Below, piece after piece: positions 27,411 through 58,057 of a DNA stretch of 64,000 nt; the stretch's first letter is position 1, and each line of letters opens with the position of its first letter. Both the position numbers and the translations under genes were made by a program. The DNA comes from an uncultured Chloroflexia bacterium (lineage in GTDB: Bacteria > Chloroflexota > Limnocylindria > Limnocylindrales > CSP1-4): positions 2,329 to 66,328 of the forward strand of contig CAVYQR010000006.1 of assembly GCA_963770795.1 (NCBI GenBank), in the 5' to 3' direction. The notes below the pieces were generated by a model. That model was not told where the DNA came from, ran no database searches, and saw nothing but the letters and a program-made list of their open reading frames with translations.

Positions 27411-28499
27411 ATGACCGACCAGACCGGCCGCCAGCCCGAGGAGCGTCTCCCCGCGCCCCGGCCGTCGTCCGCGCCGGTGCCGGCCGAGCGCTTCTCGGCG
27501 CCTCCGTCTGCCCACCGCAACGACCTGTCACCCGAGCGTGCCGCGAAGATCGTCCGCCAGTCGGCCAGCGCGCGCTGGGTGGGCTTCCTCGCGGTGACGG
27601 TGGTCGCGTTGTTCGTGATCGGCTACTACTTCTATGAGACGGGGCTGCCGAACGGGTTGACGCAGTCACGCCTGGACACGGCCCTCGAGGGCCAGCAGGT
27701 CACCTCGGTGGAACGTGGCTACAACATCTACCAGGCGAACTGCGCCCAATGCCACGGCGTGGACGGCGAGGGCGGCAAGGGACCCCAGCTGAACCGCCAG
27801 GACAAGCTGTTCGCCCACCTCAACCCGGAGTACCTCGAGAACATCCTGGTGGCCGGCGGGCGCTACGCCTGCGGCAACCCGGCCAGCATCATGCCGATCT
27901 GGTCCAACACCGGGAACCCTGCAGGCCCGCTCAACTACAAGCAGATCGAGGACCTCATCGCGTTCATCCGGGCCGAGAAGGGCACCGAGTACCGGGTGAT
28001 GGATCCGGCCCTGTTCGAGCCGGTGATCGATCCCGCCACGGGCAAGGAGGTCACGTTCGAGGGCTGGGTGGATCCGGCCTACCTGCCGGAGCCCGGCGCC
28101 ACGCCGTTCCCGGGCTGCTGGTCGGACGAGTACAACGTTCCGGCGGCGTCGTCGGCGCCCGGGGCGTCCTCAGCGCCCGGCGCGTCGTCGGCGCCCGGCG
28201 CGTCGTCAGCGCCTGCCGGGACCGTCCTCAAGGTCGTCGCCTCGGGCATCGCCTACGACGTCAAGGAGCTCAGCGCCCCGGCCGATGCCGGGTTCCAGAT
28301 CGACTTTGACAACCAGGACGCGGGGATCCCGCACAACATCGAGATCAAGGACGCCAGCGGTACGAGCGTGTTCAAGGGCGAGATCATCACCGGCACCGCC
28401 GCAACGACGTACACGGTGCCGGCGCTGGCCGCCGGGACTTATCAGTTCGTGTGCACCGTGCACCCGAACATGATTGGCACGCTGAAGGTCGGGAGCTGA
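27411..28499 (+). CDS. Membrane-anchored cytochrome c fused to a C-terminal cupredoxin
   Basis: TM helix, CAQCH heme motif with distal Met (SIMP), ASSAPG repeat linker, PHN...CTVHPNM type-1 Cu ligands. Confidence 0.9.
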   Translation: MTDQTGRQPEERLPAPRPSSAPVPAERFSAPPSAHRNDLSPERAAKIVRQSASARWVGFLAVTVVALFVIGYYFYETGLPNGLTQSRLDTALEGQQVTSVERGYNIYQANCAQCHGVDGEGGKGPQLNRQDKLFAHLNPEYLENILVAGGRYACGNPASIMPIWSNTGNPAGPLNYKQIEDLIAFIRAEKGTEYRVMDPALFEPVIDPATGKEVTFEGWVDPAYLPEPGATPFPGCWSDEYNVPAASSAPGASSAPGASSAPGASSAPAGTVLKVVASGIAYDVKELSAPADAGFQIDFDNQDAGIPHNIEIKDASGTSVFKGEIITGTAATTYTVPALAAGTYQFVCTVHPNMIGTLKVGS

Positions 28500-28503
28500 C
28501 GCC

Positions 28504-29979
28504 ATGGCCCAACCCGCCCCGCAGCCCGTGACCCGTCCTCGGCGCATCTTCTTCGGCCTGTTCGATGCGGACGGCTGGAGCTGGGCGATCGTCAAGGCGG
28601 GTTTCTGGTTCGTCACGATCATCACCCTCCTCGGATACATCCCTGACCGCGCCTACTACTTCACCGTGCAACGGACCGTCGACCTCTGGCCATTGGCGAT
28701 CTCGTTCGCCACGCAGCCAACGGCCGAGAACACGCTGCTGCGGTGGTCGCCGATCAACTTCTGCCCGCCCGAGAACGAGACGCTGCCGTGTCCGGCGCCG
28801 GTCGGCGCCACGCTCCCGTGGCACCCGGCCCCGCCCGACGTCCAGCTGCCGGCCGCTCGCGTAGACGGCGCCACGGCCGTCATCGGCCAGACCTATCTGT
28901 ACGCCGGCGGCAGCGACGGCACGGCGGCGGTCGCCACGACGTACGTCTCGCACGCCGTTGGGACCGGGAACCTGGACGCGTGGTCCGAGGGGCCGGCGCT
29001 GCCCCAGCCGCGCTCCGACGCCGCGACCGTCGTGGTCGGCAGCACGCTCTATCTCATCGGCGGATATGGGCCCGACGGCGCCCCCACCACCACCGCCTAC
29101 AGCATCACCGTGGGCAACGACGGGACGCTTGGCGAGTGGCAGCCCGTTGACACTCTGGCGCTGCCCGAGCCGCGCGCCGGCGGCAGCGCGGTGACGGTCG
29201 CGGACGGGATCGTGGTCATGGGCGGGACGGACGGGACGGCGCCCACGCGCAGCGTGTGGAAGAGCCAGCAGGACGCCTCGGGCGCGCTGGGGCCGTGGGT
29301 GGCCCAGCAGCCGCTGTACGAGGAGAACATGGACGGGGTCGCGATGCATGTCGGCGACATCGTCTTCCTCATCGGTGGCCGGAACCTCTCTGGCGAGCCG
29401 GTGACCACCGTGCAGCAGGGCCTGGTGGGCGGGGGCCCGAACGCCACCGCAGAGGACCCGAACGTCATCGATGTCTGGCGGGCAATCGAGCAGATCAACC
29501 TCCCGGTCCCGCGGACGGACATGTCAGGGTTCACCGCGAACGGCGGGATCTACGTCCAGGGCGGCGCCGACGCCTCCGGCCCCAAGGCAGAGACCTGGTG
29601 GGCCACCCCCGACGCCGGGGGCTTCATCGCGGAGTGGAACAACCTGCCTGAGCTCGACCTGGGCGAGGGCGTGGTGGGCTCCGGCGCGGTCACCTCTGGT
29701 TCGCACGCCTTCATCATGGGCGGGGAGACGGCCGGCGGCCCGACGGCCGGCATCGCGCGCGCCAACCTGGCCCCGCAGGAGCCGTTCTTCCAGCTGGGCG
29801 TGCTGGGTGCCACGGTCCCGGGCCTCAAGCTGGACGGCGAGGTCGGCCAGCAGATCGGCTATCTGAACGCCGCAGGGGTGGGCACGGTCAACTTCATCGC
29901 GCTGCTGCTCGTCGGCTGGGGGTTTGCGCACAAGGACCGGGTCCGCGAGATCATCGCGAAGCGGCGCCGCAAGAGCTGA
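28504..29979 (+). CDS. Kelch-repeat membrane protein
   Basis: Repeated LY.GG...W..LP.PR Kelch units between N- and C-terminal TM helices; starts 4 nt after the cyt c stop. Confidence 0.85.
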   Translation: MAQPAPQPVTRPRRIFFGLFDADGWSWAIVKAGFWFVTIITLLGYIPDRAYYFTVQRTVDLWPLAISFATQPTAENTLLRWSPINFCPPENETLPCPAPVGATLPWHPAPPDVQLPAARVDGATAVIGQTYLYAGGSDGTAAVATTYVSHAVGTGNLDAWSEGPALPQPRSDAATVVVGSTLYLIGGYGPDGAPTTTAYSITVGNDGTLGEWQPVDTLALPEPRAGGSAVTVADGIVVMGGTDGTAPTRSVWKSQQDASGALGPWVAQQPLYEENMDGVAMHVGDIVFLIGGRNLSGEPVTTVQQGLVGGGPNATAEDPNVIDVWRAIEQINLPVPRTDMSGFTANGGIYVQGGADASGPKAETWWATPDAGGFIAEWNNLPELDLGEGVVGSGAVTSGSHAFIMGGETAGGPTAGIARANLAPQEPFFQLGVLGATVPGLKLDGEVGQQIGYLNAAGVGTVNFIALLLVGWGFAHKDRVREIIAKRRRKS

Positions 29980-30001
29980 GCTGCGGGCCGACCAACCGCG
30001 T

Positions 30002-30370
30002 TCAGCCGGGGAGCTGTCCCTCGCCGGGCTCGACCGGTCCTCGCCTGACGGGGAGTCCGAGGCGCTGCCAGCCGTCGATGCCGCCCGCCACGTTCCCCAC
30101 GTCCTCCCACCCCTGCTGCAGCAGGTAGCTCGTCACGCCCGTCGAGCGGCTGCCGGACTGGCAGATCACGAGAATCGGCCGGTCCCTCGGAATGTCCTGC
30201 AGGCGGACGCCCAGTTGGGACATCGGGATGAACAGGCAGCCCTCCACCCGGACCTGCCGGAACTCGTCCAGCTCGCGAACGTCGAGCAACAGCGCGGGTC
30301 GCACTGGGTCACGCCGCCGAATGTCCGCGTACAGCGGGTCGAGAGCCGGGATCGCCTGGGGGCGGTTCAT
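30002..30370 (-). CDS. Rhodanese-like domain protein
   Basis: LLDVRELDEF, ICQSGSRS, VAGGIDGW. Confidence 0.92.
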   Translation of the reverse strand: MNRPQAIPALDPLYADIRRRDPVRPALLLDVRELDEFRQVRVEGCLFIPMSQLGVRLQDIPRDRPILVICQSGSRSTGVTSYLLQQGWEDVGNVAGGIDGWQRLGLPVRRGPVEPGEGQLPG

Positions 30371-30474
30371 GCAGGTGCGGTCCTCCGGATGGTCGGGGCA
30401 ACGTGGGCGAGGTCCTGCTGCCCGGGAAGAGGCACGGTCGCCATGCCCCGAGTGTACCGGCGAGCACGCCGGGG

Positions 30475-30931
30475 TCAGGCGCGAGCCGACTCGTCCGGGA
30501 GCGTCGCCAGGGGTCGCCGGCCGGCGACACCCTCGTCGGCGTCGTGCCAGAAGCCCACGCGGTCCTCGCCCGAGTCGCCAGCACAGCCAGACCTGCCGTC
30601 CGCTCACCAGGGCAGGAAAGTCGATGAGCCCGGTGGGGATGTCCCGCAGGACGATCCCGCGCTCGTCGAGCCATGCGACATCGGCCTGCATCTGGTCCAC
30701 GAGGCCGCGCATCCGGAGGCGCAGGCGGCGGAGCTCCGGATCGTCGCCTCCGGCATCGCCTTGTGCGACGGGATCCTCGGCCATCAGATCCTCGACCAGG
30801 GCGCCCTCACGATCGCGGTAGGCATCCCGCAGCCCAACGAGCTCGGAACGCTCGTCGCGGAGCCGCGCGGCAACCACCGCGAGGTCGGGGACCAGCGCAT
30901 TGGCATCATCGGGCGAGAACAGGCGGGACAC
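30475..30931 (-). CDS. DUF2203-family protein (frameshift near 30570)
   Basis: RLFSPDDANALVP...GLIDFP...WLCWRLG, then shifted frame EDRVGFWHDADEGVAGRRPL. Confidence 0.85.
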
Positions 30932-31071
30932 GCAGCGATTGTACCGATGGGACCCGCGCCGGTCGCGAACCGGTCCCGAGTGGGTCCCATCGGTAGATGA
31001 CCATGGCTCCAAGGGACCATGGACGCGGTTTGACGCCGGGTGGGACACTGGGGCGACGAACCGGAGGTCCC

Positions 31072-32601
31072 ATGCCCACGCCCACCCTCACGTCCACGCC
31101 CGCGTCCGCCCGCCGCACGCCACTTCTGCCGCCGAGGGCAGGGGTCGTCCGGCCCGAGTCGATCAATCGGACGAGGCCGGCGCTCGTGGCCCTGGTCTCC
31201 TTCGTGGTGGCCATCGCCCTGGTTGTCACCGCCGCCCTGGGTTCCGGGCCCGCGTCTGCCCTCGGCGCCACGACGCTGACGGCGAAGTGCACCTCCAACC
31301 TGCGGACCAGCGCGAGCACGTCTGCCCGGCTCCGGGTGACGATCCCGGCGGGAACCCGCCTCGTGGTGACGACCTCCGTGACAGGCGGGCGATGGACGGT
31401 CAGCTGTGGCGGCCGGTCCACGGGGACCCGCTGGTACCGGATCTCGTCGATCAACGGCAAGTCGGTCAAGGCCCGCTACGGGATCAGCTACCTCTACGTC
31501 GCGACGGCCCTCGTTCGCACGCCCGCCGCGACCTCGACGGCGACGGCGAAGACGATGACCGCGAAGTGCACCTCCAACCTGCGGACCAAGGCGACCACGT
31601 CTGCCCGGCTCCGGGTCACGATCCCGGCGGGCACCCGCCTCGTGGTGACAGCCACCGTGACAGGCGGGCGATGGGCGGTCAACTGCGGCGGCCGGGTCTC
31701 GAGCAACCGCTGGTACCGGATCTCGTCGATCAACGGCAAGTCGGTCAAGGCCCGCTACGGGATCACCTACCTCTACGTGGCTACGAACCTGGCTCGCGCC
31801 TACGTCGCGCCGACGCCCGCCCCCACGCCCACGCCCACGCCGACGCCCGCCCCGACGCCAACACCCACGCCAACGCCCACGCCGTCCCCCGCGCCCACGT
31901 GGATCGAGGGCATCGACGTCAGCCACTGGCAGGGGACCATCAACTGGACGAAGGTCGCCGCGGCCGGCAAGCGGTTCGCCTTCCTCAAGGCCTCCGAGGC
32001 CTCCGACTTCGTCGACACCACCTATCCGACCAACCGGACGCGCGCCAACGCCGCGGGGATCCTGGTGGGGGCCTACCACTTCGCGCGCCCGGACGCGCCG
32101 CTGAGTGCCGCGACCACCGTTGGTGCCGCGACCGCCGCCGAGGTTGCCGCGACCGCCGCCGAGGTTGACGCGATCGCCGAGGCGGACCACTTCGTCGACA
32201 CCGCCGCACCTGCGCGCGGAGACCTGCTCCCCGTCCTGGATCTCGAGACGACGGGTGGCCTTGACGTCGCCACCCTCCAGACCTGGGTCCGGGCGTTCAT
32301 GGAGCGCGTCCACGATCGCACTGGGATCCGCGCCATGATCTACGTTTCGCCGTCGTTCTGGAAGACGTACATGGGCGACACGAGGTGGTTCGCGGACAAC
32401 GGGTACCCGGTCCTGTGGATCGCGCACTGGACGACCGCGACCCAGCCGACGATGCCGGCCTCGAACTGGGGCGGCGATGGCTGGACGTTCTGGCAGTACA
32501 CGTCCAGCGGTCACGTCAACGGCATCGGTGACGGCGTGACCACGCGCGTGGACCTGAACCGCTACCGCTACACGGACTTCACGCCCGCCCTCGTGCCGTG
32601 A
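31072..32601 (+). CDS. GH25 lysozyme/muramidase with two N-terminal SH3b-like repeats
   Basis: GIDVSHWQG, FLKASE, GAYHFA, VLDLE, LWIAHW, FWQYTS; signal peptide; PT linker. Confidence 0.92.
   Translation: MPTPTLTSTPASARRTPLLPPRAGVVRPESINRTRPALVALVSFVVAIALVVTAALGSGPASALGATTLTAKCTSNLRTSASTSARLRVTIPAGTRLVVTTSVTGGRWTVSCGGRSTGTRWYRISSINGKSVKARYGISYLYVATALVRTPAATSTATAKTMTAKCTSNLRTKATTSARLRVTIPAGTRLVVTATVTGGRWAVNCGGRVSSNRWYRISSINGKSVKARYGITYLYVATNLARAYVAPTPAPTPTPTPTPAPTPTPTPTPTPSPAPTWIEGIDVSHWQGTINWTKVAAAGKRFAFLKASEASDFVDTTYPTNRTRANAAGILVGAYHFARPDAPLSAATTVGAATAAEVAATAAEVDAIAEADHFVDTAAPARGDLLPVLDLETTGGLDVATLQTWVRAFMERVHDRTGIRAMIYVSPSFWKTYMGDTRWFADNGYPVLWIAHWTTATQPTMPASNWGGDGWTFWQYTSSGHVNGIGDGVTTRVDLNRYRYTDFTPALVP
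31282..31785. repeat. Internal direct repeat of about 225 bp, 279-bp offset (31282 and 31561)
   Basis: Both copies start gcgaagtgcacctccaacctgcggacca and share cgctggtaccggatctcgtcgatcaacggcaagtcggtcaaggcccgctacgggatca. Confidence 0.9.
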
Positions 32602-32647
32602 TGGGGTGGCCGGCGCGCCGTCCATAGCCGATAGACTGCTCGGCACC

Positions 32648-34408
32648 ATGGATCCGAGCGCCGCGACCGCGTCCTCGCACCGCCACGATGGCGACCGCCC
32701 GGGTCCCAACGCACTCATCGACCTGATCCGGGTCTCGGTCATCGGGGAGGACGAGGCGGTCGCCGGGCCGTACGGGATCCGCCGCGTGACGTACGCGGAC
32801 TACACCGCGTCCGGCCGCAGCCTCTCGTTCCTCGAGAACTACATCCGCGAAGCCGTCCTGCCGCTGTACGCGAACACCCACACCGAGAGCTCCGGCACGG
32901 GGCTCCAGACGACCCGCTTCCGCGAGGAGGCCCGCCGCCTGGTGCTCGAGGGCGTGGGCGGGGATCCGGAGCGGCACGCGGTCATCTTCGTCGGCTCGGG
33001 CTCCACCGCCGCGATCAACCGCCTGGTGGACGTGCTCCAGCTGCGTCTCCCGGCAGATCTCGCGGACCAGTGGGACCTGCGCGCCCACATCCCGGCGGAC
33101 CAGCGCCCCGTCGTGTTCATCGGCCCCTACGAGCACCACAGCAACGAGTTGCCCTGGCGGGAGTCGATAGCGGATGTGGTCACGATCCACGAGGACCGCG
33201 ACGGCGAGATCGACCTCGCCCAGCTGGCCGACGAGCTGCTCCGGTACGCGGATCGTCCGCTGAAGATCGGCAGCTTCTCGGCCGCCTCCAATGTGACCGG
33301 CATCGTCTCGGACAGTCGGGCCATATCCCGTCTCCTCCACGAGCACGGCGCGCTCTCGTTCTTCGACTTCGCGGCCGCGGCACCCTATGTCGAGGTCCAG
33401 ATGGACCCGGCTGGCGACCCGCTGGCGTACGTGGACGCGGTGTTCATCAGCCCGCACAAGTTCATCGGCGGCCCGGGCACGCCCGGCGTCCTCGTCGCGC
33501 GTCGGGAACTGTTCCGGAACAGCGTCCCGTCGATGCCCGGCGGCGGCACCGTCGCCTACGTCAACCCGGAGGAGCACGTCTACCTCACCGACATCGAGCA
33601 CCGCGAGGAGGGCGGCACGCCGGCCATCGTGGAGTCCATCCGCGCCGGCCTCGTGTTCGGGCTCAAGGCGACGGTCGGGACTGACGCGATCCGGGAGCGC
33701 GAGGCGGACTTCATCGGCCGTGCTCTCCATCGTTGGGAGGCCAACCCGGCCATCGAGATCCTTGGCAGCCGCCAGGCGGAGCGCCTGTCCATCGTCTCGT
33801 TCGTCGTCCGTCGCGATGGCAGGTACCTGCACCACAACTTCGTGGTGGCGCTCCTCAACGACCTGTTCGGGATCCAGTCCCGGGGCGGTTGCTCGTGCGC
33901 CGGGCCGTACGGGCACCGGTTGCTGGGCATCGACGTCGCGACCAGCCACGAGTTCGAGCGCGAGATCACCCGCGGCTGCGAGGGGATCAAGCCCGGCTGG
34001 GTGCGGGTGAACTTCAACTACTTCATCGGCGAGGCGGTGTTCGACTTCATCCTGGATGCCGTCGACCTGGTGGCGAGCGAAGGCTGGCGACTGCTGCCCG
34101 ATTACGCGTTCGACCCAGCGACCGGGCTCTGGCGCCACCGGGCGGGCCGGCCGGAGCCGCCGCTCTCGCTCCGCGACATCCGCTATGACGACGGAGCGAT
34201 GACGTGGGCAGCGCACCGGCACCGGGAGCCTGTCAGCCGCCTGGCGGAGTACCTGGAGGAGGCACGGCTGCTGCTCGCGCGGCCACCTCGGGCACTCTCG
34301 GCACCCACCATCGGCCCTGGAGAGGTTGGGCCCGACTTCGAGGGCCTGCGATGGTTCCTCTTCCCGGAAGACGTGTCGCCCCCCGAGGTGGGCGCAATTG
34401 ATGACTGA
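32648..34408 (+). CDS. Aminotransferase class V / cysteine desulfurase-like PLP enzyme
   Basis: YADYTASG, YANTHT, EHHSN, SNVTG, SPHKF (PLP Lys), RGGCSCAG. Confidence 0.92.
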   Translation: MDPSAATASSHRHDGDRPGPNALIDLIRVSVIGEDEAVAGPYGIRRVTYADYTASGRSLSFLENYIREAVLPLYANTHTESSGTGLQTTRFREEARRLVLEGVGGDPERHAVIFVGSGSTAAINRLVDVLQLRLPADLADQWDLRAHIPADQRPVVFIGPYEHHSNELPWRESIADVVTIHEDRDGEIDLAQLADELLRYADRPLKIGSFSAASNVTGIVSDSRAISRLLHEHGALSFFDFAAAAPYVEVQMDPAGDPLAYVDAVFISPHKFIGGPGTPGVLVARRELFRNSVPSMPGGGTVAYVNPEEHVYLTDIEHREEGGTPAIVESIRAGLVFGLKATVGTDAIREREADFIGRALHRWEANPAIEILGSRQAERLSIVSFVVRRDGRYLHHNFVVALLNDLFGIQSRGGCSCAGPYGHRLLGIDVATSHEFEREITRGCEGIKPGWVRVNFNYFIGEAVFDFILDAVDLVASEGWRLLPDYAFDPATGLWRHRAGRPEPPLSLRDIRYDDGAMTWAAHRHREPVSRLAEYLEEARLLLARPPRALSAPTIGPGEVGPDFEGLRWFLFPEDVSPPEVGAIDD

Positions 34409-35822
34409 TCGCACCCTCGCGGTCCTCGGCCTGGACGTCGGGACGACCGAGGCCAAGGCGCTCCTCGTCGGGCTGGACGGGAGCCTCCTGGGCCTGGGTC
34501 GCGCGGCGTACCCGATGGACCTGGGGCCGGGCGGCCGCGCGGAGCAGGACCCGCGCCTGTGGTGGTCGGCCCTCGCCGCGGCCGTGGCCACGTTGGAACC
34601 ACGGTCCGCGGGCGGCCCTGCGGCGCCCGAGATCCTCGCGATCTGCTGTGTCTCGCAGGGCCCGACGCTGGTCGCGGTGGACGCGGCGGGCGATCCCGTG
34701 CGCCCGGCGATCACCTGGCAGGACCGGCGTGCCGGAGGGACCGGGTTCGGGCTGCTGCCGAAGATGGCCTGGCTGGCGCGCGAGGATCCGGAAGCTGTGG
34801 CGCGGGCGGCCTGGCTGGTGCCGGCGTGGGACGCGATCGGACTGTGGCTCAGCGGCGAGGCGGCCTCGTCGCTGCAGGGCCACGAGGTGGTCCCATCGGG
34901 CGCCGAGCTGGCGGGCGCGGGGGTGCGGGTGTCCCAGGTGCCCGCGGCGCGGCCGTTCGGGTCGCGGCTGGGTTCCCTGACGGCGGCCGCGGCGGAGGTC
35001 CTCGGCCTGCGCGAAGGGATCCCGATCGTCTCCGGCGTCAACGATGGAGCCGCCAGCATGCTGGGCGCCGGGCTGCGCGCCGTGGGCGATGCCGTGGACA
35101 CCGGTGGGACGTCCGGCGGTATCGCGATCTACGCGGATGGGCCGGTGGCCCTGCCGGTGGCCGGCCTCTACCAGGCGCCCGCCCCGATCGTCGGGCGCTG
35201 GGTCGTGGGCGGCGCCATGGCTGCCCTCGGGGCCTCCATGGACTGGCTGAGGAGCTCTGTTCTGGGCGACCTCTGGTCCCCGGAGGAGCTGTTCGCCGAG
35301 GCGGCGTCCGTGCCGGCCGGAGCGGATGGGCTGGTCTTCCTGCCGTACCTGGCGGGGGAGCGGGCCCCGATCTTCGACGAGGACGCGCGCGGCGCGTTCG
35401 TGGGGCTCACGCTGGCGCATGGGCGCGCGCACCTGGTCCGGGCCGTGCTGGAGGGCGCCGCATTTGCGATGCGCCACGTCGCGGAGCCCCTGGCCCAGGC
35501 CGGAGCACCGGCGCTCGAGCTCCGCGTGGCCGGGCGGCCCAGCCCCGGCGACCTCTGGGCACGGGTCAAGGCGGACGTGCTGGGCGTGCCGGCGGTGATC
35601 CCGACCATCGGCGAGACTGCCGTCCTGGGCGCGGCGATCATCGCGGCAGCGGGCGTTGGGGCAGTGCCATCGCTGGAGGCGGGGGTGGCGTCGATGGTGT
35701 CGATCGCCCGGCGACTGGAGCCGGATCCTGCGACGCGGTCGATCTACGACCAGGCCTTCGGCGTGTACCGGGCGCTCTACCCGGCGTTGAGGCCGACGCA
35801 GCGGGACGGTGGGCACCGGTAG
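34401..35822 (+). CDS. FGGY-family carbohydrate kinase (xylulokinase-like)
   Basis: GLDVGTT, EQDP, ITWQDRR, FLPYLAGERAP, RAVLEG. Confidence 0.9.
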   Translation: MTDRTLAVLGLDVGTTEAKALLVGLDGSLLGLGRAAYPMDLGPGGRAEQDPRLWWSALAAAVATLEPRSAGGPAAPEILAICCVSQGPTLVAVDAAGDPVRPAITWQDRRAGGTGFGLLPKMAWLAREDPEAVARAAWLVPAWDAIGLWLSGEAASSLQGHEVVPSGAELAGAGVRVSQVPAARPFGSRLGSLTAAAAEVLGLREGIPIVSGVNDGAASMLGAGLRAVGDAVDTGGTSGGIAIYADGPVALPVAGLYQAPAPIVGRWVVGGAMAALGASMDWLRSSVLGDLWSPEELFAEAASVPAGADGLVFLPYLAGERAPIFDEDARGAFVGLTLAHGRAHLVRAVLEGAAFAMRHVAEPLAQAGAPALELRVAGRPSPGDLWARVKADVLGVPAVIPTIGETAVLGAAIIAAAGVGAVPSLEAGVASMVSIARRLEPDPATRSIYDQAFGVYRALYPALRPTQRDGGHR

Positions 35823-50274: not shown

Positions 50275-51134
50275 GCCCCACGTCCCGTCCGCCCGCGTGG
50301 ATCGACGCGGTCCTGGCCGACGCGCCGCCGGCTCCCACCGTGCTGGTGCTGGGCGGCTTCCTCACCTCGCCGCCCGTGTACCGGCCGTTCGTCCGGCGGC
50401 TGCTGGCGCGCGGCGTCGCCGACGTGGTGGTGGCCGGCGTCTGGACCCCGGACTGGCTGCTGGCGGCGGTCCATGGCCTGGGGCCGATCCTCACCCGCTC
50501 TGGCCGGGCGCTGCTGGCGGCCTCGGCGCGGTCCGACGCGGCCAGCCAGGGCGCGCCCGTGCTGGTCATCGGGCACTCAGCCGGCGGGATGTCGGCGCGC
50601 CTGCTGACGTCGCCGGTCCCGTATGCCGGGCGACGGCTCAACGCCTCGGGGCGGATCGGGGCGATCGTCACGCTCGGGACGCCGAACGTGGTGTCCGCCG
50701 CGGGCGAGATGGGTAGCCGCGTCGGCGCGGAGGCCGCGGCATTCGCCAACCGCGAGGTGCCCGGACCGCGCTTCGCACCCCGGGTGGGGTACCTGGCCGT
50801 CGCGTCCACGGCGGTCGCCGGGCGGCCGGACGGTACCCGCGCCGAACGGCGTTCCCGGCGCACGTACGAGGGTCTGCTGCCGGATCCCACCGCCGCGGAG
50901 CTGGTGGGCGACGGGTTGATCCCGCTCGCGTCCGCGCTGCTGCCCGACGCCCCGGCGCTGGTCTTCGACGATGTGCGCCACGGCCAGTGGCCCGGGCGCG
51001 ACTGGTACGGCTCGGACGTGCCGATGGATCGCTGGTGGCCCGTGGCCCTCGAGATATGGAGGGCGGCGCTGCGCGCACGAGCCGAGGCGGCCTCCCAGGC
51101 GGCGGCAGGAGCTGCACCCGCGGCGCGACCCTGA
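50271..51134 (+). CDS. Alpha/beta hydrolase (lipase/esterase-like)
   Basis: GHSAGG nucleophile elbow, VTLGTP, GDGLIP, catalytic His region; TTGA overlap with the MFS gene. Confidence 0.88.
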   Translation: MSPTSRPPAWIDAVLADAPPAPTVLVLGGFLTSPPVYRPFVRRLLARGVADVVVAGVWTPDWLLAAVHGLGPILTRSGRALLAASARSDAASQGAPVLVIGHSAGGMSARLLTSPVPYAGRRLNASGRIGAIVTLGTPNVVSAAGEMGSRVGAEAAAFANREVPGPRFAPRVGYLAVASTAVAGRPDGTRAERRSRRTYEGLLPDPTAAELVGDGLIPLASALLPDAPALVFDDVRHGQWPGRDWYGSDVPMDRWWPVALEIWRAALRARAEAASQAAAGAAPAARP

Positions 51135-51165
51135 CAGCGCCCGCAGCGACGGCGGGTCGCACCTT

Positions 51166-51194
51166 TTGACTGATCGGGGGATCGGCAGTAGTGT
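51166..51194 (+). promoter_or_regulatory. Sigma70 promoter of tRNA-fMet, TTGACT-N17-TAGTGT
   Basis: Direct reading; 7 nt upstream of the tRNA. Confidence 0.75.
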
Positions 51195-51201
51195 TGTCAG
51201 T

Positions 51202-51276
51202 CGCGGGGTGGAGCAGCGGCAGCTCGTCGGGCTCATAACCCGAAGGTCGGAGGTTCGAATCCTTCCCCCGCAACCA
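51202..51276 (+). tRNA. Initiator tRNA-fMet(CAT)
   Basis: CGCGGGG start with C1:A72 mismatch, GGG/CCC pairs in the anticodon stem, CAT anticodon, CCA. Confidence 0.96.
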
Positions 51277-51290
51277 ACTCGCTTCACCAG

Positions 51291-51328
51291 GAACCCCGGG
51301 ACTCGACCACCCCGGGGTTCTTACTTTT
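51291..51328 (+). terminator. Intrinsic terminator after tRNA-fMet
   Basis: gaaccccggg-N10-cccggggttc followed by ttactttt. Confidence 0.75.
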
Positions 51329-51391
51329 CCGGGCCGGCAACCGATGTCTGGTGCCGGATACGGGTGGTCCGAGCTCGTGGAGCAAGACGAT

Positions 51392-51421
51392 GAAAGACCC
51401 GCCCGTGAGGGCGGGCCTTTC
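51392..51421. terminator. Probable bidirectional terminator
   Basis: gaaag-a-cccgccc-gtga-gggcggg-c-ctttc. Confidence 0.75.
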
Positions 51422-51440
51422 GCTTTCTGGTCCTGGCGGG

Positions 51441-52907
51441 TCAGCCGGGTGGCGTGAAGGTCGAGGCCATCGTCATGAGACTGACGATCGCGGCATGTGA
51501 CTCGAAGACATCGTCGCCTGACGTGCCGGTCGTGCGGAGCACCACGGTGCCCGCCGCCTGGACGTTCGCGAGGCAGGCATAGCTGGCGTTGCCCGCAGGG
51601 ATACCGGCGGTGCCAACCACGGCGATCGCGCCGACGCACGTTACCGCGGTGCCGCCGACATCGGCTTCGGACTGCGCGATGACATTCCACGCGGCCGGGT
51701 CCGTGGCAGCCGAAATCGCGTCCTGGTATGAGGTGGCGGAAAGGTCGGCCTGCACCGCCGCCTGGACCGGGGAGCCGTCTGCCGGGACGGAGATCGGCTC
51801 CGGATCGAAGTAGCGGCAGGCGAGCTCAGGCGGAGCCGTCACGGTGGACCAGTCACCCGGGTACACGATCGTGGCGACGGCCGGACTGCCGGGGGGCACG
51901 AGGGCGCACGAGGCGATCGGCGGGAGCTCGATGGGAGGGGCCCCGGATGGGGCGACCGACGGAGGAGCAGTCGGCGTCGGCGTCGGCTTGGGCGTCGGCT
52001 TGGGCGTCGGCTCCGGTGTCGCCGTTGGTGCCGTGGTTGGCTCCGGAGTCGGCGTGACCGCTGGCGTGGCATTGGCGCTCGGCTCCGGGCTCGCGGATGT
52101 GTCGGGTTCGACGTCAGGCGTGGGCCTGACCAGGGCCACGCGGAGCCCACCCGACCGGTCCGTGAGGTTGAGGGTCGATCCGCGGGACTCGACGAAGGCC
52201 ACACCCTGGAGCGCCTCGAGGAAGGCCGTCTCCTGGTCCATGACCGCCGTGTCGCAGGCAAGGTTGGTGGTGGCCAGCCTGCCGACGCCGACCACGTCGC
52301 CGTTCGTGCCGTAGATCCCACTGTACGCATTGCAGCCGGCAGAACCGCCGACGCTCACCAGCTGGAACGCGACATCGATCTGCGTGCCCTCGAGTACCCC
52401 GACCACCGTTCCCGGGGTTGTCCCGTACGAGTCCACCCGCCACTTCCCCAGCAGGGGGTTGCGCGGCGCGGCGTTGAACACGAGCACGGTGTTCAGCTTG
52501 GCATCGAGGATGGTCAGCTGGCCGCGGCGGACGCCGTAGAAGCGGCTCGAATCGAGCAGCGAGAGGTACTGCTGCTCAAAGGCCATGGCGGCCTCATCGC
52601 AGGCCATGAACGTCCCGGACAGCTGCGAGATGAGGAGGGTTCGTCCGCCGGCCCGGTACAGCCCGTTGAACTCGTTGCAGCCGGAATAGCCGCTGACGCG
52701 GCTTGAATCGAACCTGACGTCCGCGTACTGGGCTTCCGGAAGGATCGTGAGCGATCCGTCCTGACCGTACGAATCCAGCACCCACTGGGTGCCCTCGAGG
52801 GTGCCGCCGGTGACCTCGGCAGTGTCGCCGGTGCCCTCGCCGGCCGAGCAGGCGGTGATGAGGAATGCCAGGGCGACGAGCGCCCCGAGCGTCCGCTTCT
52901 TGGTCAT
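51441..52907 (-). CDS. Lipoprotein with two META domains and an extra Cys-containing C-terminal domain
   Basis: ITAC lipobox; SGYSGCN...TFMAC and GGSAGCN...TNLAC; PT linker. Confidence 0.88.
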   Translation of the reverse strand: MTKKRTLGALVALAFLITACSAGEGTGDTAEVTGGTLEGTQWVLDSYGQDGSLTILPEAQYADVRFDSSRVSGYSGCNEFNGLYRAGGRTLLISQLSGTFMACDEAAMAFEQQYLSLLDSSRFYGVRRGQLTILDAKLNTVLVFNAAPRNPLLGKWRVDSYGTTPGTVVGVLEGTQIDVAFQLVSVGGSAGCNAYSGIYGTNGDVVGVGRLATTNLACDTAVMDQETAFLEALQGVAFVESRGSTLNLTDRSGGLRVALVRPTPDVEPDTSASPEPSANATPAVTPTPEPTTAPTATPEPTPKPTPKPTPTPTAPPSVAPSGAPPIELPPIASCALVPPGSPAVATIVYPGDWSTVTAPPELACRYFDPEPISVPADGSPVQAAVQADLSATSYQDAISAATDPAAWNVIAQSEADVGGTAVTCVGAIAVVGTAGIPAGNASYACLANVQAAGTVVLRTTGTSGDDVFESHAAIVSLMTMASTFTPPG

Positions 52908-52928
52908 GACGTCAAAGGCTGTGGTGGC

Positions 52929-53195
52929 CTAGGCGGACTTCGACGCGACGTAGAGCGCGAACAGCCGCATCGAGTAGCCGAACCCGGCGACGAGGAACGC
53001 CGCGAAGATCGGCGTGCCGACGGCGTACGCCGAGATCGCGAAACCCTCGAGGATGTTGAATGCCTCGCGCGACGCGAGGTCGACCCACCAGATCACCCCG
53101 GCGATCACGGCGTAGATGACGAACACCCACCCGACCACGATGAAGAACGTGCCGATGGATGCCAGCCGGCGGGCGTCGTTGACGATCTGCTCCAT
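52929..53195 (-). CDS. Small two-TM hypothetical protein
   Basis: GGAG SD; two hydrophobic helices. Confidence 0.7.
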   Translation of the reverse strand: MEQIVNDARRLASIGTFFIVVGWVFVIYAVIAGVIWWVDLASREAFNILEGFAISAYAVGTPIFAAFLVAGFGYSMRLFALYVASKSA

Positions 53196-53302
53196 GTCGC
53201 ACTCCCTTGTGGTGGGTGAGGCGGGATGCCTTGAGGAGACAACGGTACCGGACCGGGGGAGGACGGCGCGGCCTCGACACGGCCCAACCTTCTCGATGAG
53301 GG

Positions 53303-53850
53303 TCAGCCCTCGCGGACCTCGGCGGTGACCTTGATCTCGCCGGCCTTCTCAAGCGTGAGCGTGATCTCGACCTTGTCGCCGACCTTCAGCTCCTGGTTGA
53401 GGCCGATCAGCATGATGTGGTAGCTGCCGGGCTTGAGCTCCAGCTTGCCGCCGGAGGGGATCTCCACGCGCTCGACGGGCCGCATGCCCAGCATGCCCCC
53501 GGTGCTCATGTCCCCGGACGCCGCCGGGGACTCGCCCGGCATCATCGACTCGCCCGGCATCATCGACTCGGCCGGCATCATCGACTCGGCCGGCATCTCC
53601 ACGGTCTCGTGGACCTCGGTGGACTTGGCGACCGTGCTCGACGCACCGATGAGCGCATCGGCGGCAGAGCCGGTGTTCTCGATGACCATGTAGGCGGCAC
53701 CGGCCGAGGCCATCATCGAGGAGTTGCGGGCCCAGGCGTCGGTGACCTTGATCCGCCGCCGCCGCTGCCGCCACACGCGGCGACCACGAGGGCGAGGACG
53801 AGGACGGGGACGAGCCGCGCCGCCGCGCGGCGTACGGAGATGCTGGCCAT
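53303..53850 (-). CDS. PCuAC copper chaperone lipoprotein (frameshift near 53753)
   Basis: VAAC lipobox, then shifted VTDAWAR...AAYMVIEN...EVHET...GMRPV...LKPGSYHIML. Confidence 0.92.
53529..53597. repeat. 18-bp tandem repeat, about 4 copies, encoding MMP(A/G)ES in PCuAC
   Basis: Unit gactcg(c/g)ccggcatcatc. Confidence 0.9.
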
Positions 53851-53891
53851 GGGTTCCTCCATTGCGGTGACATGTTGGGTTGCGGCCGTGG

Positions 53892-54575
53892 TCATCCGCC
53901 GGCGACCTCGCGCAGACGGTCGGCGATGAGCTTGGCGGGGGCACCAAAGAACAGGTGGTGGCGGAGTGTGCCCTCGGCATCGACCAGGTAGGCCTCCGCC
54001 GAGTGCGCCATCGCATAGCCCGAGGCCGAATCCGACTCGAGCTTCCGGTACGAGACCCCCCAGTCGGCCGCCGCCTTGGCGATCTCAGCTTCCGTGCCTG
54101 TCAGGCCGATGAAGCCCGCCTGATAGTAGTCGACGTACTGTTTCATGGCCGCGGCATCGTCCCGGGCCGGATCCACCGTCACGAAGACGACGGTCGCGTC
54201 CACGCCGGACTCCCGGATCCCGGCGCGGAGCTCCGCGAGGGACGTGGGGCACACGTCGGGGCAGTGCGTGTAGCCGAAGTAGACGAACACGGGCCTGCCG
54301 CGCATCGATGCGAGGTCGAACGGCCGCCCGTCCTGGTCCGTGAGGCGGAGCGCGGGCGCCGGGCGGGTGGGGCTGTAGGCAGTGTCACGCACCCCGAGGG
54401 GCGCCGGCGTGACGGCCTCGACCATGATCGGGGTCGCGGCCGGCGACCCGACCCCTGCGCCACAACCGCCCGCCACGACGAGCGCGAGCAGGGCGATGAC
54501 AAGCGGGACGGAGCGTCGGACGGGGCGCTCCTCCGGCGCCGAGGCGCAGGAGATCGCGGCAGTGGAGCGGCTCAC
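53892..54575 (-). CDS. SCO1/SenC copper chaperone
   Basis: FGYTHCPDVCP, VTVDPARD, MAHS. Confidence 0.95.
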   Translation of the reverse strand: MSRSTAAISCASAPEERPVRRSVPLVIALLALVVAGGCGAGVGSPAATPIMVEAVTPAPLGVRDTAYSPTRPAPALRLTDQDGRPFDLASMRGRPVFVYFGYTHCPDVCPTSLAELRAGIRESGVDATVVFVTVDPARDDAAAMKQYVDYYQAGFIGLTGTEAEIAKAAADWGVSYRKLESDSASGYAMAHSAEAYLVDAEGTLRHHLFFGAPAKLIADRLREVAGG

Positions 54576-54624
54576 AAGAGCCCAGAGTACCGCCGGTCGC
54601 CGCCTGAGGTCGCGAGCCCGCGCG

Positions 54625-55410
54625 TCAGTCCCAGCGGAAGCGGCGGGCGGCGAGGACTGCGAACAGGATGGCCCAGCCGGTCAGGATCGCGAGCGGCTCG
54701 GCTGGATCGCCCGTGGTGCTCCCGAACCCGATCGAGAGGACCTCCGTGAGCGCGGCGGCCGGCAGATCGGACGCGATGGACGCGACCGGGGCCGGCAGCC
54801 GGTCAAGCGGCAGCACGATCCCGCCCAGGATCAGCGACGCGAGGAAGAGCAGGTTCGCCAGCGCCAGCGTCGCCTCCGCGCGCAGCGTGCCGGCCATGAG
54901 CAGCCCGAGACCCGCGAAGGCGATCGTCCCCAGCACCAGGCCGGCGAGCACCAGCGGGACCGAGGCTCCGGCCCCCGGCGTCCAGCCCAGCAGTCCGGCG
55001 GCGATCCCGACCAGGAGCACGAGCTGAACCAGCTCCACGATGACCACGGACGCGGTCTTCGCCGCGACGACCACCGACGTCCCCGCCGGGCTCCCGCCCA
55101 GCCGCTTGATGACGCCGTACTGGCGCTCGAAGCCGGTGGAGATCGCGAGCGACACCATGGCGGCGGCGATGATCGCGAGCGACACCGAGCCCGGGAGCAG
55201 GCGGTCGACCGGGCTCCCGGATGCCGTGCCACCGCTGGTGTCGAACGAGCTGAAGACCAGCAGGACGCCGGCCGGGATCACGAACGTGACCAGGAGCCCC
55301 TCGCCCCGCCGGAGCACCAGCCGGAACTCGTACGCGGCCAGAGCCAGCGTCATCCGGAGCCAGGACGACGGCCGGGCCGGCACGCCGGCGCCGATCGGGA
55401 GCGTGCTCAT
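54625..55410 (-). CDS. ABC-2 type permease
   Basis: Six TM helices, TGFERQYGVIKRLG, GTLRAEATLA. Confidence 0.9.
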   Translation of the reverse strand: MSTLPIGAGVPARPSSWLRMTLALAAYEFRLVLRRGEGLLVTFVIPAGVLLVFSSFDTSGGTASGSPVDRLLPGSVSLAIIAAAMVSLAISTGFERQYGVIKRLGGSPAGTSVVVAAKTASVVIVELVQLVLLVGIAAGLLGWTPGAGASVPLVLAGLVLGTIAFAGLGLLMAGTLRAEATLALANLLFLASLILGGIVLPLDRLPAPVASIASDLPAAALTEVLSIGFGSTTGDPAEPLAILTGWAILFAVLAARRFRWD

Positions 55411-56417
55411 GCCGCGCCCTCAGCCTCGGCGACGACGTCTTCGCCGACAAGCTCGAGGTAGCGCTCCTCCAGGCTGGCGGATCCGAGGCGCAGCTCCGTG
55501 ATGAGGAGCCCCTGCTCCGCGCACCACGCGGCGAGAGCCGCCACCAGGCTTGGATCCCCGGCGCCGCGGAGTCCCTCCACCTCGTAGTGCGCACCCGGGC
55601 CGGCCGCATCCACCCGGACCCGATCACCCCAGGGGGCCAGCGCCGCGGCCAGCGCGCCCACGTCGGCAGCGGCCAGCGGAGTCGCGAGCCGGAAGCGCAG
55701 CCGCGGGGCGCCCGCGCCGGTCAACTCGGCCGGCGTCCCCAGTGCCACCAGCCGGCCGCGGTCCAGGATGGCGACGCGGTCGGCCAGCACCTCCACGTCG
55801 CCCAGCTCGTGGGTGGTGAGGAGGATCGTAGTCCCGGCTCCGCGCAGCGCGGCGATCCGCTCCCGCGTCGCCTGCTTGGCCGCGGGGTCCATGCCCGCCG
55901 TCGGCTCGTCCAGGACGAGGAGCTCGGGGCGCCCGAGCAGGGCCAGCGCGAGCCCCAGGCGCTGCTTCTCGCCACCGGATAGCCGGCGGAACCGCGTCCC
56001 GGCGGCGCGCTCGAGATCCACCAGCTCCAGCAGGCGGTCCGGGTCCTCCGGGTCGCGGTAGAAGCGCGCGTACAGGCGCAGCGCCTCGCGCGGCGTGGTC
56101 CGGGGGTCGATGCCGCCCTCCTGGAGCATGAGCCCGATGCGCGGCCGGAGCCGGGCGCCGTCCTTGGCGGGGTCCAGGCCCAGGACGCGCACGGTGCCGC
56201 CGTCCACGTGGCGGTAGCCCTCCAGGATCTCGACGGTCGTGGTCTTGCCCGCGCCATTTGGACCCAGCAGCGCGAACAGCTCCCCGCGGCGGACGTCGAA
56301 GGTCAGCCCGGCGAGGATCTCGCGCGCCCCGTACCGCTTGCGGACGTCACGGGCGCTGACGGCGAGGGCGGTGTCTGGCTCGCCTGTCTCCCATGTCTCG
56401 GCCGCATCGGCCGTCAC
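55407..56417 (-). CDS. ABC transporter ATPase
   Basis: GPNGAGKTT, LSGGEKQR, LDEPTAGMDP. Confidence 0.93.
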   Translation of the reverse strand: MTADAAETWETGEPDTALAVSARDVRKRYGAREILAGLTFDVRRGELFALLGPNGAGKTTTVEILEGYRHVDGGTVRVLGLDPAKDGARLRPRIGLMLQEGGIDPRTTPREALRLYARFYRDPEDPDRLLELVDLERAAGTRFRRLSGGEKQRLGLALALLGRPELLVLDEPTAGMDPAAKQATRERIAALRGAGTTILLTTHELGDVEVLADRVAILDRGRLVALGTPAELTGAGAPRLRFRLATPLAAADVGALAAALAPWGDRVRVDAAGPGAHYEVEGLRGAGDPSLVAALAAWCAEQGLLITELRLGSASLEERYLELVGEDVVAEAEGAA

Positions 56418-56929
56418 GGCTTGATCCTGGCGTACTGGGTGTCGAAGTCCTCGGGGCGGACCTCGCCAATCTGGATCCCGCGGAGGATGCCGTCCTTGTC
56501 GATGAAGTAGGTCTGGGGAGGCGCCACGACGCGATAGGCAGCCGCGAGCGCCCCGTCGTCGTCGGTGACGGTGGGCCACGTGGCCCCGGTGTCCTGAACG
56601 AACTGCTGGGCCAGCGCGGGCTCGTCCTTGTACAGGACGCCCAGCATGACGAGGCCGTCCGAGGGACCCAGCTCATCGAGCCGCTGCTGGAACAGCGGGA
56701 ACTCGTCCCGGCAGGGCGTGCACCACGACGCCCAGAAGTTGAGGATGACGGGACGCCCCCGGTACGCGGCGAGGTCGATCGTGGCGCCGTCCAGCGCCGT
56801 GCCCGTGATGGCGGGGACCGGCTGACCCGTACGTGCCTCCGCCGCCGCACCGCTCGGGCCGCAGGCGACGACGAGCAGGAGCAGGGACAGGCTGAAGGGC
56901 AGGAGGGGGATGCGAAACGCGCGGGGTAT
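56414..56929 (-). CDS. TlpA/ResA-like thiol-disulfide oxidoreductase lipoprotein (no canonical start)
   Basis: Open frame LLLLVVACG...VILNFWASWCTPCRDEFP...PPQTYFID; only ATA, ATC or CTG are available before the signal peptide. Confidence 0.85.
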   Translation of the reverse strand: MPRAFRIPLLPFSLSLLLLVVACGPSGAAAEARTGQPVPAITGTALDGATIDLAAYRGRPVILNFWASWCTPCRDEFPLFQQRLDELGPSDGLVMLGVLYKDEPALAQQFVQDTGATWPTVTDDDGALAAAYRVVAPPQTYFIDKDGILRGIQIGEVRPEDFDTQYARIKP

Positions 56930-56938
56930 CGGACGGCC

Positions 56939-58057
56939 TTACTGGGCTGTGACGGTCCCCGTCATGTTCGGGTGCACCGTGCAGACGAACGTGTACTGGC
57001 CGGCGGCCAGGGCGGGCACATCATAGACCTTGACCGCCGGACCGCTGAAGATCTCGCCCTTGAACAGCGACGCACCGCCGCCGTCCTTGATCTCCACGTT
57101 GTGCGGCACCGGGTCCCGGTTGTCCAGGGCGAGCGTGAACGGCTTGCCGGCCGGGACGGTGATCGACGCCTCGAGGTACGCCACGTTCTCCGCGGTGAGG
57201 ACCGCATCCGCCGCCGGGAGGCTGGGTCCAGGTGTCGCCCCGCCACCGGTGCCACCGCCGGCGTCGGCGCTCGCGACCGGACCGCCGCTGGGGGCCGCGG
57301 TGCCGTCGCCCGGACCGGTCAGCACGCCGGACGTGAGGATGATGCCTGCCGCCAGGAGCACGCCGAGCGCGGCGAAGGTCGCCTTCGGCCAGGATGGGGC
57401 ACCGCCCAGGTCGAGGTGGCCGGTCCTATCCGCCTCTGCGACGGCGTTGTACTCCCTGCGCGAATCCCGGAGCCAGCCGAGGAGCACCAGGGCCATCGCG
57501 ATGATGCCGAACAGCAGGGCCCAGCCGCCGACGATCATGCCGCCCACGAGCATGGTGAACCCGATGGAGACGAGCAGCGGCCGGAACGAGGGGGGCGGGA
57601 CGTGGACGCCTGGCGGCGGCGCGCCGTCCGAGGGCACCGGCAGCGCGCCGGACTGCAGCTCGCCGGCCGCCGCGGCCGCGGGATGGACGGCATGGTCGTA
57701 GTCCCGGATCGCCTCGCGCCCCCAGTAGAGGAGCGTGATCACCAGGACCACGACGCCGATCCACAGCCAGATGCCGCCGCTGAACATCCCGAACAGCAGC
57801 ATGAACGCGCCGAACGCTGCCAGCACCGGGGCGAACGACGGGCCGGGCATGTGGATGCCCTCCGGCGTGACCGGCGGCAGGCGCCGGATGCCGCGGCTCG
57901 TCGGCCCGGCCGTGGCAAACCGGTAGACGGTCCAGGTCAGGTACAGGAAGACCAGTCCCGCCAGGGCGATCGGGATCAGCGCCACGAGGGCGCCCCAGTC
58001 CGGGACGATGAACTGTCCCGAGAGCTCGAGCAGCCCGGTCCAGAGTTCCTCGATCAT
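56939..58057 (-). CDS. Membrane protein with two subunit-IV-like hairpins fused to a C-terminal cupredoxin
   Basis: Repeated G(I/V)H.P.PSF.P plus two TM units; PHN...CTVHPNM type-1 Cu site. Confidence 0.85.
   Translation of the reverse strand: MIEELWTGLLELSGQFIVPDWGALVALIPIALAGLVFLYLTWTVYRFATAGPTSRGIRRLPPVTPEGIHMPGPSFAPVLAAFGAFMLLFGMFSGGIWLWIGVVVLVITLLYWGREAIRDYDHAVHPAAAAAGELQSGALPVPSDGAPPPGVHVPPPSFRPLLVSIGFTMLVGGMIVGGWALLFGIIAMALVLLGWLRDSRREYNAVAEADRTGHLDLGGAPSWPKATFAALGVLLAAGIILTSGVLTGPGDGTAAPSGGPVASADAGGGTGGGATPGPSLPAADAVLTAENVAYLEASITVPAGKPFTLALDNRDPVPHNVEIKDGGGASLFKGEIFSGPAVKVYDVPALAAGQYTFVCTVHPNMTGTVTAQ

Follow-up and report, generated by a model that had tools for sequence, protein, structure and literature searches.

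Copper domains fused to the bc-complex cytochrome c and to an oxidase protein as probable electron shuttles in Limnocylindrales bacteria

A 64,000-nt stretch of an uncultured Limnocylindrales genome, here called the window, contains two genes 28 kb apart whose products both end in a cupredoxin domain. One is the cytochrome c gene of a Rieske/cytochrome b operon (27411-28499, plus strand), the other is the closing gene of the cytochrome oxidase operon and encodes a six-helix membrane protein (56939-58057, minus strand). Judged by their sequences, the two domains appear to be copies of a single amicyanin-like blue-copper domain. It is likely, with a probability of roughly 0.7, that such tethered copper domains are interchangeable shuttles that carry electrons from haem c to the CuA centre of the oxidase and in this way replace cytochrome c. 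We infer copper binding, the location at the outer face, the electron route and that the six-helix protein is attached to the oxidase via two hairpins.

The genome of the window (G000) is 90% complete. It was compared with an order sample of 80 Limnocylindrales genomes, consisting of a family f1 (2.2-4.1 Mb) and a "streamlined" family f2 (1.0-1.4 Mb), and with 107 genomes from three deeper families of the class (f3, f4, and f5). Papers are cited by PMC number. As far as can be inferred from the description in PMC13212565, f1 and f2 would fit CSP1-4 and Limnocylindraceae. The copper domain is found in four positions, which we call slots: on the bc-complex cytochrome c, on oxidase subunit II, on the six-helix protein (subunit-IV-like or CtaF-like), and as a free lipoprotein-type protein.

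One copper domain on two respiratory proteins

Both domains of the window score above the Pfam cut-off for Cupredoxin_1 (42.4 and 46.5 bits versus 27), are about 92 residues long and have the His, Cys, His, and Met ligands with a C-x2-H-x2-M loop. In the alignments of both fusion families these ligands are invariant or at least 90% conserved, and the set is complete in all 135 domains collected, the C-terminal motif having been a criterion for collection. For this collection one CuA-like domain was dropped, copies from second operons were set aside, and duplicates within a genome sharing the last 60 residues were merged, which removed one copy of G024. Beyond the collection, the strict ligand pattern is present in 75 of 80 cytochrome c loci. 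With the cytochrome c domain as a single-sequence query against solved structures the amicyanins are the best matches, with the ligands in register. A profile search gives a near tie between auracyanin A (5e-10) and amicyanin (7e-10), and a fold search with the cytochrome c model lists the auracyanins first and amicyanin as well, at E values of about 1e-7. The predicted local distance difference test (pLDDT) of the models, averaged over blocks, is mostly 87-98 inside the copper domains. On the oxidase side it falls below 50 at residues 250-276 of the linker, for which disorder is predicted. The proposal of the earlier note that both genes end in a type-1 copper domain on a flexible Ala/Pro/Ser/Gly linker is therefore well supported by the Pfam scores, the four ligands and the disordered linkers.

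A single CxxCH motif is found in 80 of 80 cytochrome c relatives, and Met161, which is invariant in their alignment, is the likely axial haem ligand. Cys154 and Cys236 are also invariant outside the haem motif and likely form a disulfide (27870-28118). The positive charge of the protein is 3.5 before the membrane helix versus 1.1 after it, and c-type haem is attached on the outer side of the membrane, so that the haem and copper domains are predicted to face outside. In the six-helix protein the Lys/Arg values of the loops around the hairpins are 5.9, 2.3, and 3.9 and that of the stretch after helix six is only 0.6, and thus its copper domain is predicted outside too. On these charge patterns both domains would lie on the same side of the membrane, as a relay of the kind put forward in the earlier note would need.

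The two hairpins of the six-helix protein match helices I-II of subunit III (residues 10-65 of 1m56, E 1.2e-6; residues 539-604 of 2yev, E 7.2e-7). Because this is exactly the part that is missing from the subunit III of the operon, we regard the protein as CtaF-like. Compared with CtaF the hairpin is doubled, two helices are extra, and the copper domain is added. A complex prediction of residues 17-247 with subunits I and III and a 61-residue protein of the operon scored 0.00 in two runs with an uncertain partner fold, and is not used as evidence.

Up to four copies per genome

The earlier note had described twin cupredoxins on the basis of 36 identities in 52 positions. A recount from the PHN motif gave exactly the same number, and over the whole domain the two are 48-54% identical. 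However, cross-slot pairs from different genomes average 45-49% identity, so that the match marks one family and not a matched pair. It does not indicate a recent duplication in this genome either, as the longest exact DNA match between the two is 17 bp versus a between-genome 95th percentile of 19. In addition, the genome encodes a third copy outside the window, an open reading frame (ORF) with a lipoprotein-type signal (G000:C3:73377-73862), which is 67-68% identical to the cytochrome c domain and hence closer to it than the oxidase-side domain is. The word twin therefore does not fit a set of up to four interchangeable copies.

The fourth copy forms the end of subunit II in most relatives. 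A search across 70 genomes of the genus yielded 40 full-length matches and one more in which the domain is seen in a split match. Eleven shorter matches were fetched, nine with and two without the domain (G521 and G543). Subunit II of the window has a CuA motif and no CxxCH, in agreement with the statement of the earlier note that it carries no fused cytochrome c. Its reading frame stops after a bare linker, and subunit I begins 14 bases further on. An assembly error was considered for this ending and rejected: G521 and G543, two other species of the genus, end in the same stub, and the loss is therefore real. The subunit II copy has also been lost in g2, g3, and much of f2, and other cupredoxin subtypes occupy slots in g9, g16, and some f2 genomes. 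Among four f2 genomes (G019, G031, G055, G001; L126-L129) subunit II ends in a different, longer-loop cupredoxin in three, whereas the fourth retains a decayed domain whose Cys ligand has been replaced by Ser.

Across genera the slot does not predict kinship (mean identity 0.448 in the same and 0.446 in different slots). Within a genus it does (0.62 versus 0.49), and the nearest neighbour is of the same slot in 90 of 127 cases. On the cupredoxin tree 39 changes of slot label are required, against a minimum of 5. This is a quick tree of 96 columns with many open forks, of which only the starred ones were used, and these alongside the identity counts. Domains of one genome are more alike than expected from cross-genome comparisons, by 7.9 points in the cross-genus comparison with 96% of 692 pairs positive; the excess is 6.8 points without G024, the pairs are not independent, and a composition bias is possible. 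For these statistics the domain set was rebuilt, giving 132 domains. The clearest case is G024, in which all four domains are 97-99% identical in protein and 264-343 bp of exact DNA are common to all of them between differing flanks. Such sharing points to gene conversion between the slots. In G004, from the same genus, three contigs (L136, L358, L359) with linker sequence in common break off within the copper cassette or shortly ahead of it, a pattern to be expected if near-identical copies had broken the assembly.

The two fusions occur together

In-frame fusions were counted by hand over the 80 genomes. Among the matches listed, the oxidase-side fusion is present in 59 genomes, the cytochrome c fusion in 58, and both in 54, so that the co-occurrence which the earlier note suggested testing is borne out. 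Neither is found in 13 genomes. In the remaining 13, one of the genes lies at a contig end, is frameshifted, or was not found; the matches listed contain no cytochrome c for G058 and no oxidase-side gene for G059 and G045. Six of these 13 were read, and none of the six has a complete unfused gene. In G004, G022, G029, G032, G036, and G065, what had looked like cytochrome c or CtaF-like genes lacking the fusion turned out to be contig ends or frameshifts in or near the linker. Across the order, every complete cytochrome c gene and every complete long CtaF-like gene seen had a copper domain. None of five tested genomes without the fusions has a haem-copper oxidase, and bd oxidase was found in 4/4 tested g4 genomes.

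Where both genes are on one contig they face each other, at distances of 7-79 kb in 21 f1 genomes and 2.9-5.1 kb in ten f2 genomes. The CtaF-like gene near the cytochrome c gene stands apart from the oxidase core genes in the three f2 regions read. Four f2 genomes (G005, G015, G003, G007; L122-L125) have two CtaF-cupredoxin genes each. The long gene is close to ctaG and the bc operon, and the shorter one, with a single hairpin, is part of the oxidase operon.

The genome of the window encodes one haem-copper oxidase and one class I cytochrome c (PF00034/PF13442 match), which is the fusion itself. With this cytochrome c as the sole member of class I, no carrier except the copper domains is evident between the bc complex and CuA. 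The f2 genomes are even simpler: one class I cytochrome c in 3/3, one haem-copper oxidase in 5/5, one cytochrome b in 9/9, NrfD in 0/9, and bd oxidase in 1/9. Thus, the f2 oxidase has no evident electron source besides forward flow through the bc complex. A stand-alone copy of the copper domain was not seen in f2. In five genomes checked for the Pfam family, the matches were the CuA domain and the three fused copies, plus two further ORFs (G001, G003). Extra class I cytochromes c occur in G057, near additional oxidase operons.

Haem c and copper in the same positions

The cytochrome c fusion has no match at 1e-36 in the 107 f3, f4, and f5 genomes. There the bc operon ends in a di-haem cytochrome c, with two CxxCH motifs in one frame in seven of nine loci and a cytochrome c gene broken across frames in the other two (L252, L255). 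The first domain of this protein aligns with the cytochrome c of the window (probability 99%). In a tree built from three proteins of the operon (cytochrome b, subunit IV, flavoprotein), the haem-plus-copper forms are one clade (100 in the Shimodaira-Hasegawa-like approximate likelihood-ratio test, SH-aLRT) nested among the di-haem forms, with f4 as sister (99) and f3 and f5 outside. Both this tree, which has a long-branch outgroup, and the subunit I tree discussed below are quick trees with SH-aLRT values only and long-branch warnings, and in the latter the outgroup is not one side of a branch. The order of the families agrees with that in PMC13212565, if our inferred matching of the families is right. 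At the tail of subunit II, haem c is found in 6/6 f3/f5 loci and the copper domain in 8/8 f4 loci; the CtaF-like gene of f3, f4, and f5 is, where detected, short and without a copper domain. Haem c thus occupies two of the same slots in the deeper families, and there is a swap from haem to copper within the class.

The design has arisen more than once, because another Chloroflexota family, f19, has a fusion of subunit II with a cupredoxin of a different subtype in 5/5 loci, and G378 has a membrane-tethered copper copy behind subunit III. The f19 cluster (L346-L350) comprises genes for Rieske, b6, subunit IV, a tri-haem cytochrome c, subunit II with the different cupredoxin, subunit I, and a lipoprotein-type cupredoxin; from its gene content it would be an independent copper-linked chain. 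Atlas searches returned clusters of the own family and pointed to other phyla in which cytochrome c is fused to a cupredoxin.

Electron route and alternative explanations

In the route that we propose, electrons would pass from quinol to the Rieske protein, haem c, one or more tethered copper domains, and CuA. The six-helix protein would be attached to the oxidase through its hairpins resembling helices I-II of subunit III. With linkers of about 25-35 residues, either domain could swing between haem c and CuA whenever the two complexes come close. Alternatively, the electron might be passed from copper to copper by self-exchange. The third, lipoprotein-type copy of this genome would be a carrier diffusing on the membrane surface. 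Parallel and redundant shuttling is more likely than a serial hand-off from copper to copper, which we would put at about one in three. Redundant shuttles are favoured over an ordered wire because the copies are near-identical in G024 and because the subunit II copy has been lost. A ladder of specialised donors and acceptors is argued against by the net acidic charge in all slots (means -4.1 to -6.8) together with the near-identity in one genome. A more far-reaching version is tentative and rather unlikely: all carrier steps between bc haem and CuA would have been rebuilt from one copper cassette, which replaced haem c stepwise on up to three subunits of two complexes and was kept alike by gene conversion, electrons moving by copper self-exchange without a downhill ladder.

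Several observations weigh against shuttling copper domains as the replacement of cytochrome c. The co-occurrence of the fusions shows one origin and joint loss with the whole chain, the genomes being kin and not independent trials. The longest exact DNA matches between the copies of this genome are 17-29 bp, so that conversion has not been recent here. The copper, haem, and CuA domains are all net acidic and no charge complementarity points to docking. The PF12270 match of the six-helix protein reaches 22.5 bits at a cut-off of 26.9. In the subunit I tree the copper-tailed oxidases stand beside an oxidase from another class and not beside the caa3 oxidases of f3 and f5, so that on the oxidase side exchange of the operon may be the explanation, and not a swap of the tail at its site. 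Other electron routes exist in this 90% complete genome, as it also encodes a bd oxidase, two NrfD genes, a second cytochrome b, and multihaem clusters. Finally, the APWY motif and the NAD(P)-type flavoprotein of the bc complex leave the direction of electron flow uncertain.

The covalently wired relay of the earlier note is not supported, as the domains are on separate proteins of separate complexes. A fixed supercomplex of complexes III and IV could still hold an ordered wire from haem c via two copper domains to CuA, like actinobacterial bcc-aa3. CtaE/CtaF form the interface of the two complexes in mycobacteria (PMC8361435), and the oxidase-side domain is on a CtaF-like protein. On the bc side the copper domain stands in the position of the second haem, in ten f2 genomes the two genes are as close as given above, and f2 has no visible free copy. 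However, linker length across relatives spans 12-88 residues in one fusion and 22-52 in the other (medians 25 and 35), and domains that are exchanged between slots and near-identical in G024 have no surfaces specific to a slot. With the repeated loss of the subunit II copy and a cytochrome b that is short, split, and devoid of the long extension found in Actinobacteria, such a supercomplex is unlikely. Reverse flow is less probable still. An outside donor would feed the copper domains, and the electrons would be split between the oxidase and a reverse-running bc complex making NAD(P)H; rusticyanin is thought to split electrons likewise in iron oxidisers. The APWY motif, which has been linked to reverse operation (PMC4122944), the S-Y signature of a high-potential Rieske protein, the flavoprotein in the operon, as in anammox operons (PMC5600118), and the multihaem clusters elsewhere in this genome would all fit. 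In f2, however, a second class I cytochrome c, a second cytochrome b, NrfD, and in most cases bd oxidase are absent and an alternative donor is not evident.

The copper domains might instead store copper, deliver it to CuA, or protect the oxidase, electrons going directly from haem c to CuA. Genes for SCO1, PCuAC, and CtaG flank the oxidase operon, and a tethered domain can have roles beyond that of a fused partner (PMC13324648). Yet the type-1 electron-transfer ligands are kept in all collected domains, the domain stands where relatives have a haem carrier, and dedicated chaperones are already present, which makes this quite improbable. Hardly credible at all is a cassette that spreads because GC-rich linkers recombine and that is tolerated although the cell does not need it. 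Gene conversion, the frequent loss of the subunit II copy, and the Ser-for-Cys remnant speak for it; the lack of complete genes without the domain, noted above for the order, and the retention of both fusions in genomes of only 1.0-1.4 Mb speak against it. Interchangeable shuttles thus remain the preferred reading.

Genes of the two operons and their surroundings

The features of the window are listed in Table 1. Type-1 copper and CuA are well matched by a Rieske potential above 260 mV. Such a potential (>260 mV) is predicted here from the S-Y signature of the Rieske protein, following the rule in PMC4122944. The Kelch-repeat gene follows the cytochrome c gene in the f1 and f2 loci read and was not detected in the f3, f4, and f5 bc loci. 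Its product may have arrived together with the copper domain.

Table 1. Features of the two respiratory gene groups in the window
Feature	Position	Strand
GltD/NfnB-like flavin and iron-sulfur protein, first gene of bc operon; true start likely near 23483	22943..25318	+
Four-helix cytochrome b6-type subunit, CLGG motif	25315..26043	+
Subunit IV (PetD-like), APWY Qo motif	26059..26676	+
Rieske protein, S-Y signature	26696..27370	+
bc-complex cytochrome c with type-1 copper domain, 362 residues: one membrane helix, one CxxCH, linker, cupredoxin	27411..28499	+
Membrane anchor of cytochrome c, residues 56-75; preceded by positive charges, N-terminus predicted inside	27576..27635	+
Single haem c motif, residues 111-115	27741..27755	+
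Ala/Pro/Ser/Gly repeat linker, residues 242-269, predicted disordered, pLDDT <50	28134..28217	+
bc-side cupredoxin domain, ligands H308, C348, H351, M354	28218..28496	+
Kelch-repeat membrane protein, last gene of bc operon across the order	28504..29979	+
PCuAC copper chaperone, downstream of oxidase operon, frameshifted as assembled	53303 to ~53851	-
SCO1/SenC copper chaperone, downstream of oxidase operon	53892-54575	-
Oxidase-operon membrane protein, 372 residues: six predicted helices, two subunit III helix I-II hairpins (CtaF-like), linker, cupredoxin	56939..58057	-
Oxidase-side cupredoxin domain, ligands H319, C359, H362, M365	56942..57208	-
Gly/Pro/Ala/Ser linker after sixth helix, residues 247-283	57209..57319	-
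Second hairpin, residues 159-196; weak PF12270 match below cut-off	57470..57583	-
First subunit III helix I-II-like hairpin, residues 73-113	57719..57841	-
Conserved 61-residue two-helix gene; no Pfam match	58068..58253	-
Oxidase subunit III without helices I-II; Pfam match begins at profile position 78	58272..58997	-
Oxidase subunit I; sole haem-copper oxidase found in genome	58966..60588	-
Oxidase subunit II: CuA, ends in linker stub where most relatives carry another cupredoxin	60602..61534	-
CtaG-type assembly factor, divergent from oxidase operon	61504..62787	+

The YSHP motif of subunit I is that of a type A2 oxidase, and the 61-residue protein, by its likeness to CtaF, is likely the N-terminal half of a split CtaF. 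At the aromatic electron-entry position of subunit II, corresponding to Trp121 in Paracoccus, Tyr is found here and Phe in several relatives. The frameshift of the PCuAC gene lies just past the lipoprotein signal in a GGC-rich run and is probably an assembly error. By eye, the translations of the 50971-51050 region of the window and of L039:12836-13546 in G007 reveal a tRNA-like stretch downstream of the oxidase-side genes. Outside the window, a small gene (G000:C2:430488-430967, plus strand) encodes an N-terminal helix and a PDWG motif as in the oxidase-side protein, followed by a four-Cys ribbon; it adjoins a cytochrome c biogenesis gene that looks CcsA/CcsB-like by eye. The three multihaem clusters are at G000:C2:828013-843707, C1:491222-493237, and C4:23804-28313; one contains the second cytochrome b, one an ORF with 27 CxxCH motifs, and one an NrfD gene.

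Relation to known systems and significance

A close functional parallel is the haloarchaeal halocyanin-CbaD fusion HcpB of ba3 oxidase, a blue-copper domain on a small membrane subunit of the oxidase in a host without mobile cytochrome c, which has been proposed as carrier between complexes III and IV (PMC2674319, PMC3128077). Here, in contrast, the host is a bacterium, the oxidase is of the A type, the anchor is CtaF-like, the copper domain is C-terminal, and both the bc cytochrome c and subunit II bear further copies. In HcpB halocyanin is joined to subunit IIa/CbaD of a B-type oxidase. Here the anchor matches helices I-II of subunit III and a subunit III gene is present, so that the protein is not an HcpB, although it would work alike. 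Actinobacterial bcc-aa3 shares the absence of a free cytochrome c, the split subunit III with CtaF-type helices I-II, and a carrier within the bc cytochrome c (QcrC, CtaE/CtaF; PMC8361435). No other small cytochrome c was found in this 90% complete genome, and the six-helix protein supplies the helices I-II lacking in the subunit III gene; unlike CtaF, it stays below the PF12270 cut-off and is not a single short polypeptide. The differences are a mono-haem cytochrome with copper instead of the di-haem QcrC, a split b6-type cytochrome b with a flavoprotein, and a doubled hairpin with a copper domain.

In caa3 oxidases (Thermus, Rhodothermus, Bacillus) a redox domain is fused to the C-terminus of subunit II. 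Such a fusion is seen directly in f3 and f5; in f1 and f4, however, the fused domain is a cupredoxin, and in this genome only the bare stub without CxxCH is left. The auracyanins of Chloroflexus and Roseiflexus are also type-1 copper carriers of Chloroflexota and the top fold matches, and one is membrane-tethered and proposed for respiration (PMC3150298). They are stand-alone proteins working with alternative complex III, whereas the domains of the window are fused to products of a Rieske/cytochrome b and an oxidase operon and possess the short C-x2-H-x2-M loop; in single-sequence comparison amicyanin is their best match. Sulfolobus SoxM with sulfocyanin likewise joins a Rieske/cytochrome b module to a haem-copper oxidase by a copper protein (PMC3750248, PMC4122944), but has no c-type haem and a single separate copper subunit instead of several fused copies. 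The membrane-anchored cytochrome cy of Rhodobacter also uses a long linker to work between complexes III and IV (PMC8361435), but has haem in place of copper, its own anchor, and no fusion to the complexes.

Literature searches, with subscription papers outside their coverage, found no description of these copper fusions. The word 'cupredoxin' is absent from the main text and six supplementary files of PMC13212565, one image-only PDF being outside the text search. A literature search on gene conversion between domains belonging to different respiratory subunits gave nothing relevant. A search of sequencing runs found no run with half of the query words; six RNA runs have shares of 0.05-0.12.

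That domains on different respiratory subunits should undergo gene conversion with one another is unusual in itself. The near-identical donor- and acceptor-side domains of G024 would allow a direct test of a swinging arm versus two-dimensional diffusion versus hand-off, and the small size of the domain should ease its expression. If the reading is true, haem c and type-1 copper have been exchanged at the same respiratory slot within one bacterial class, and nature would have provided an experiment that compares iron with copper carriers in widespread and abundant uncultured bacteria of soils, freshwater, and lakes.

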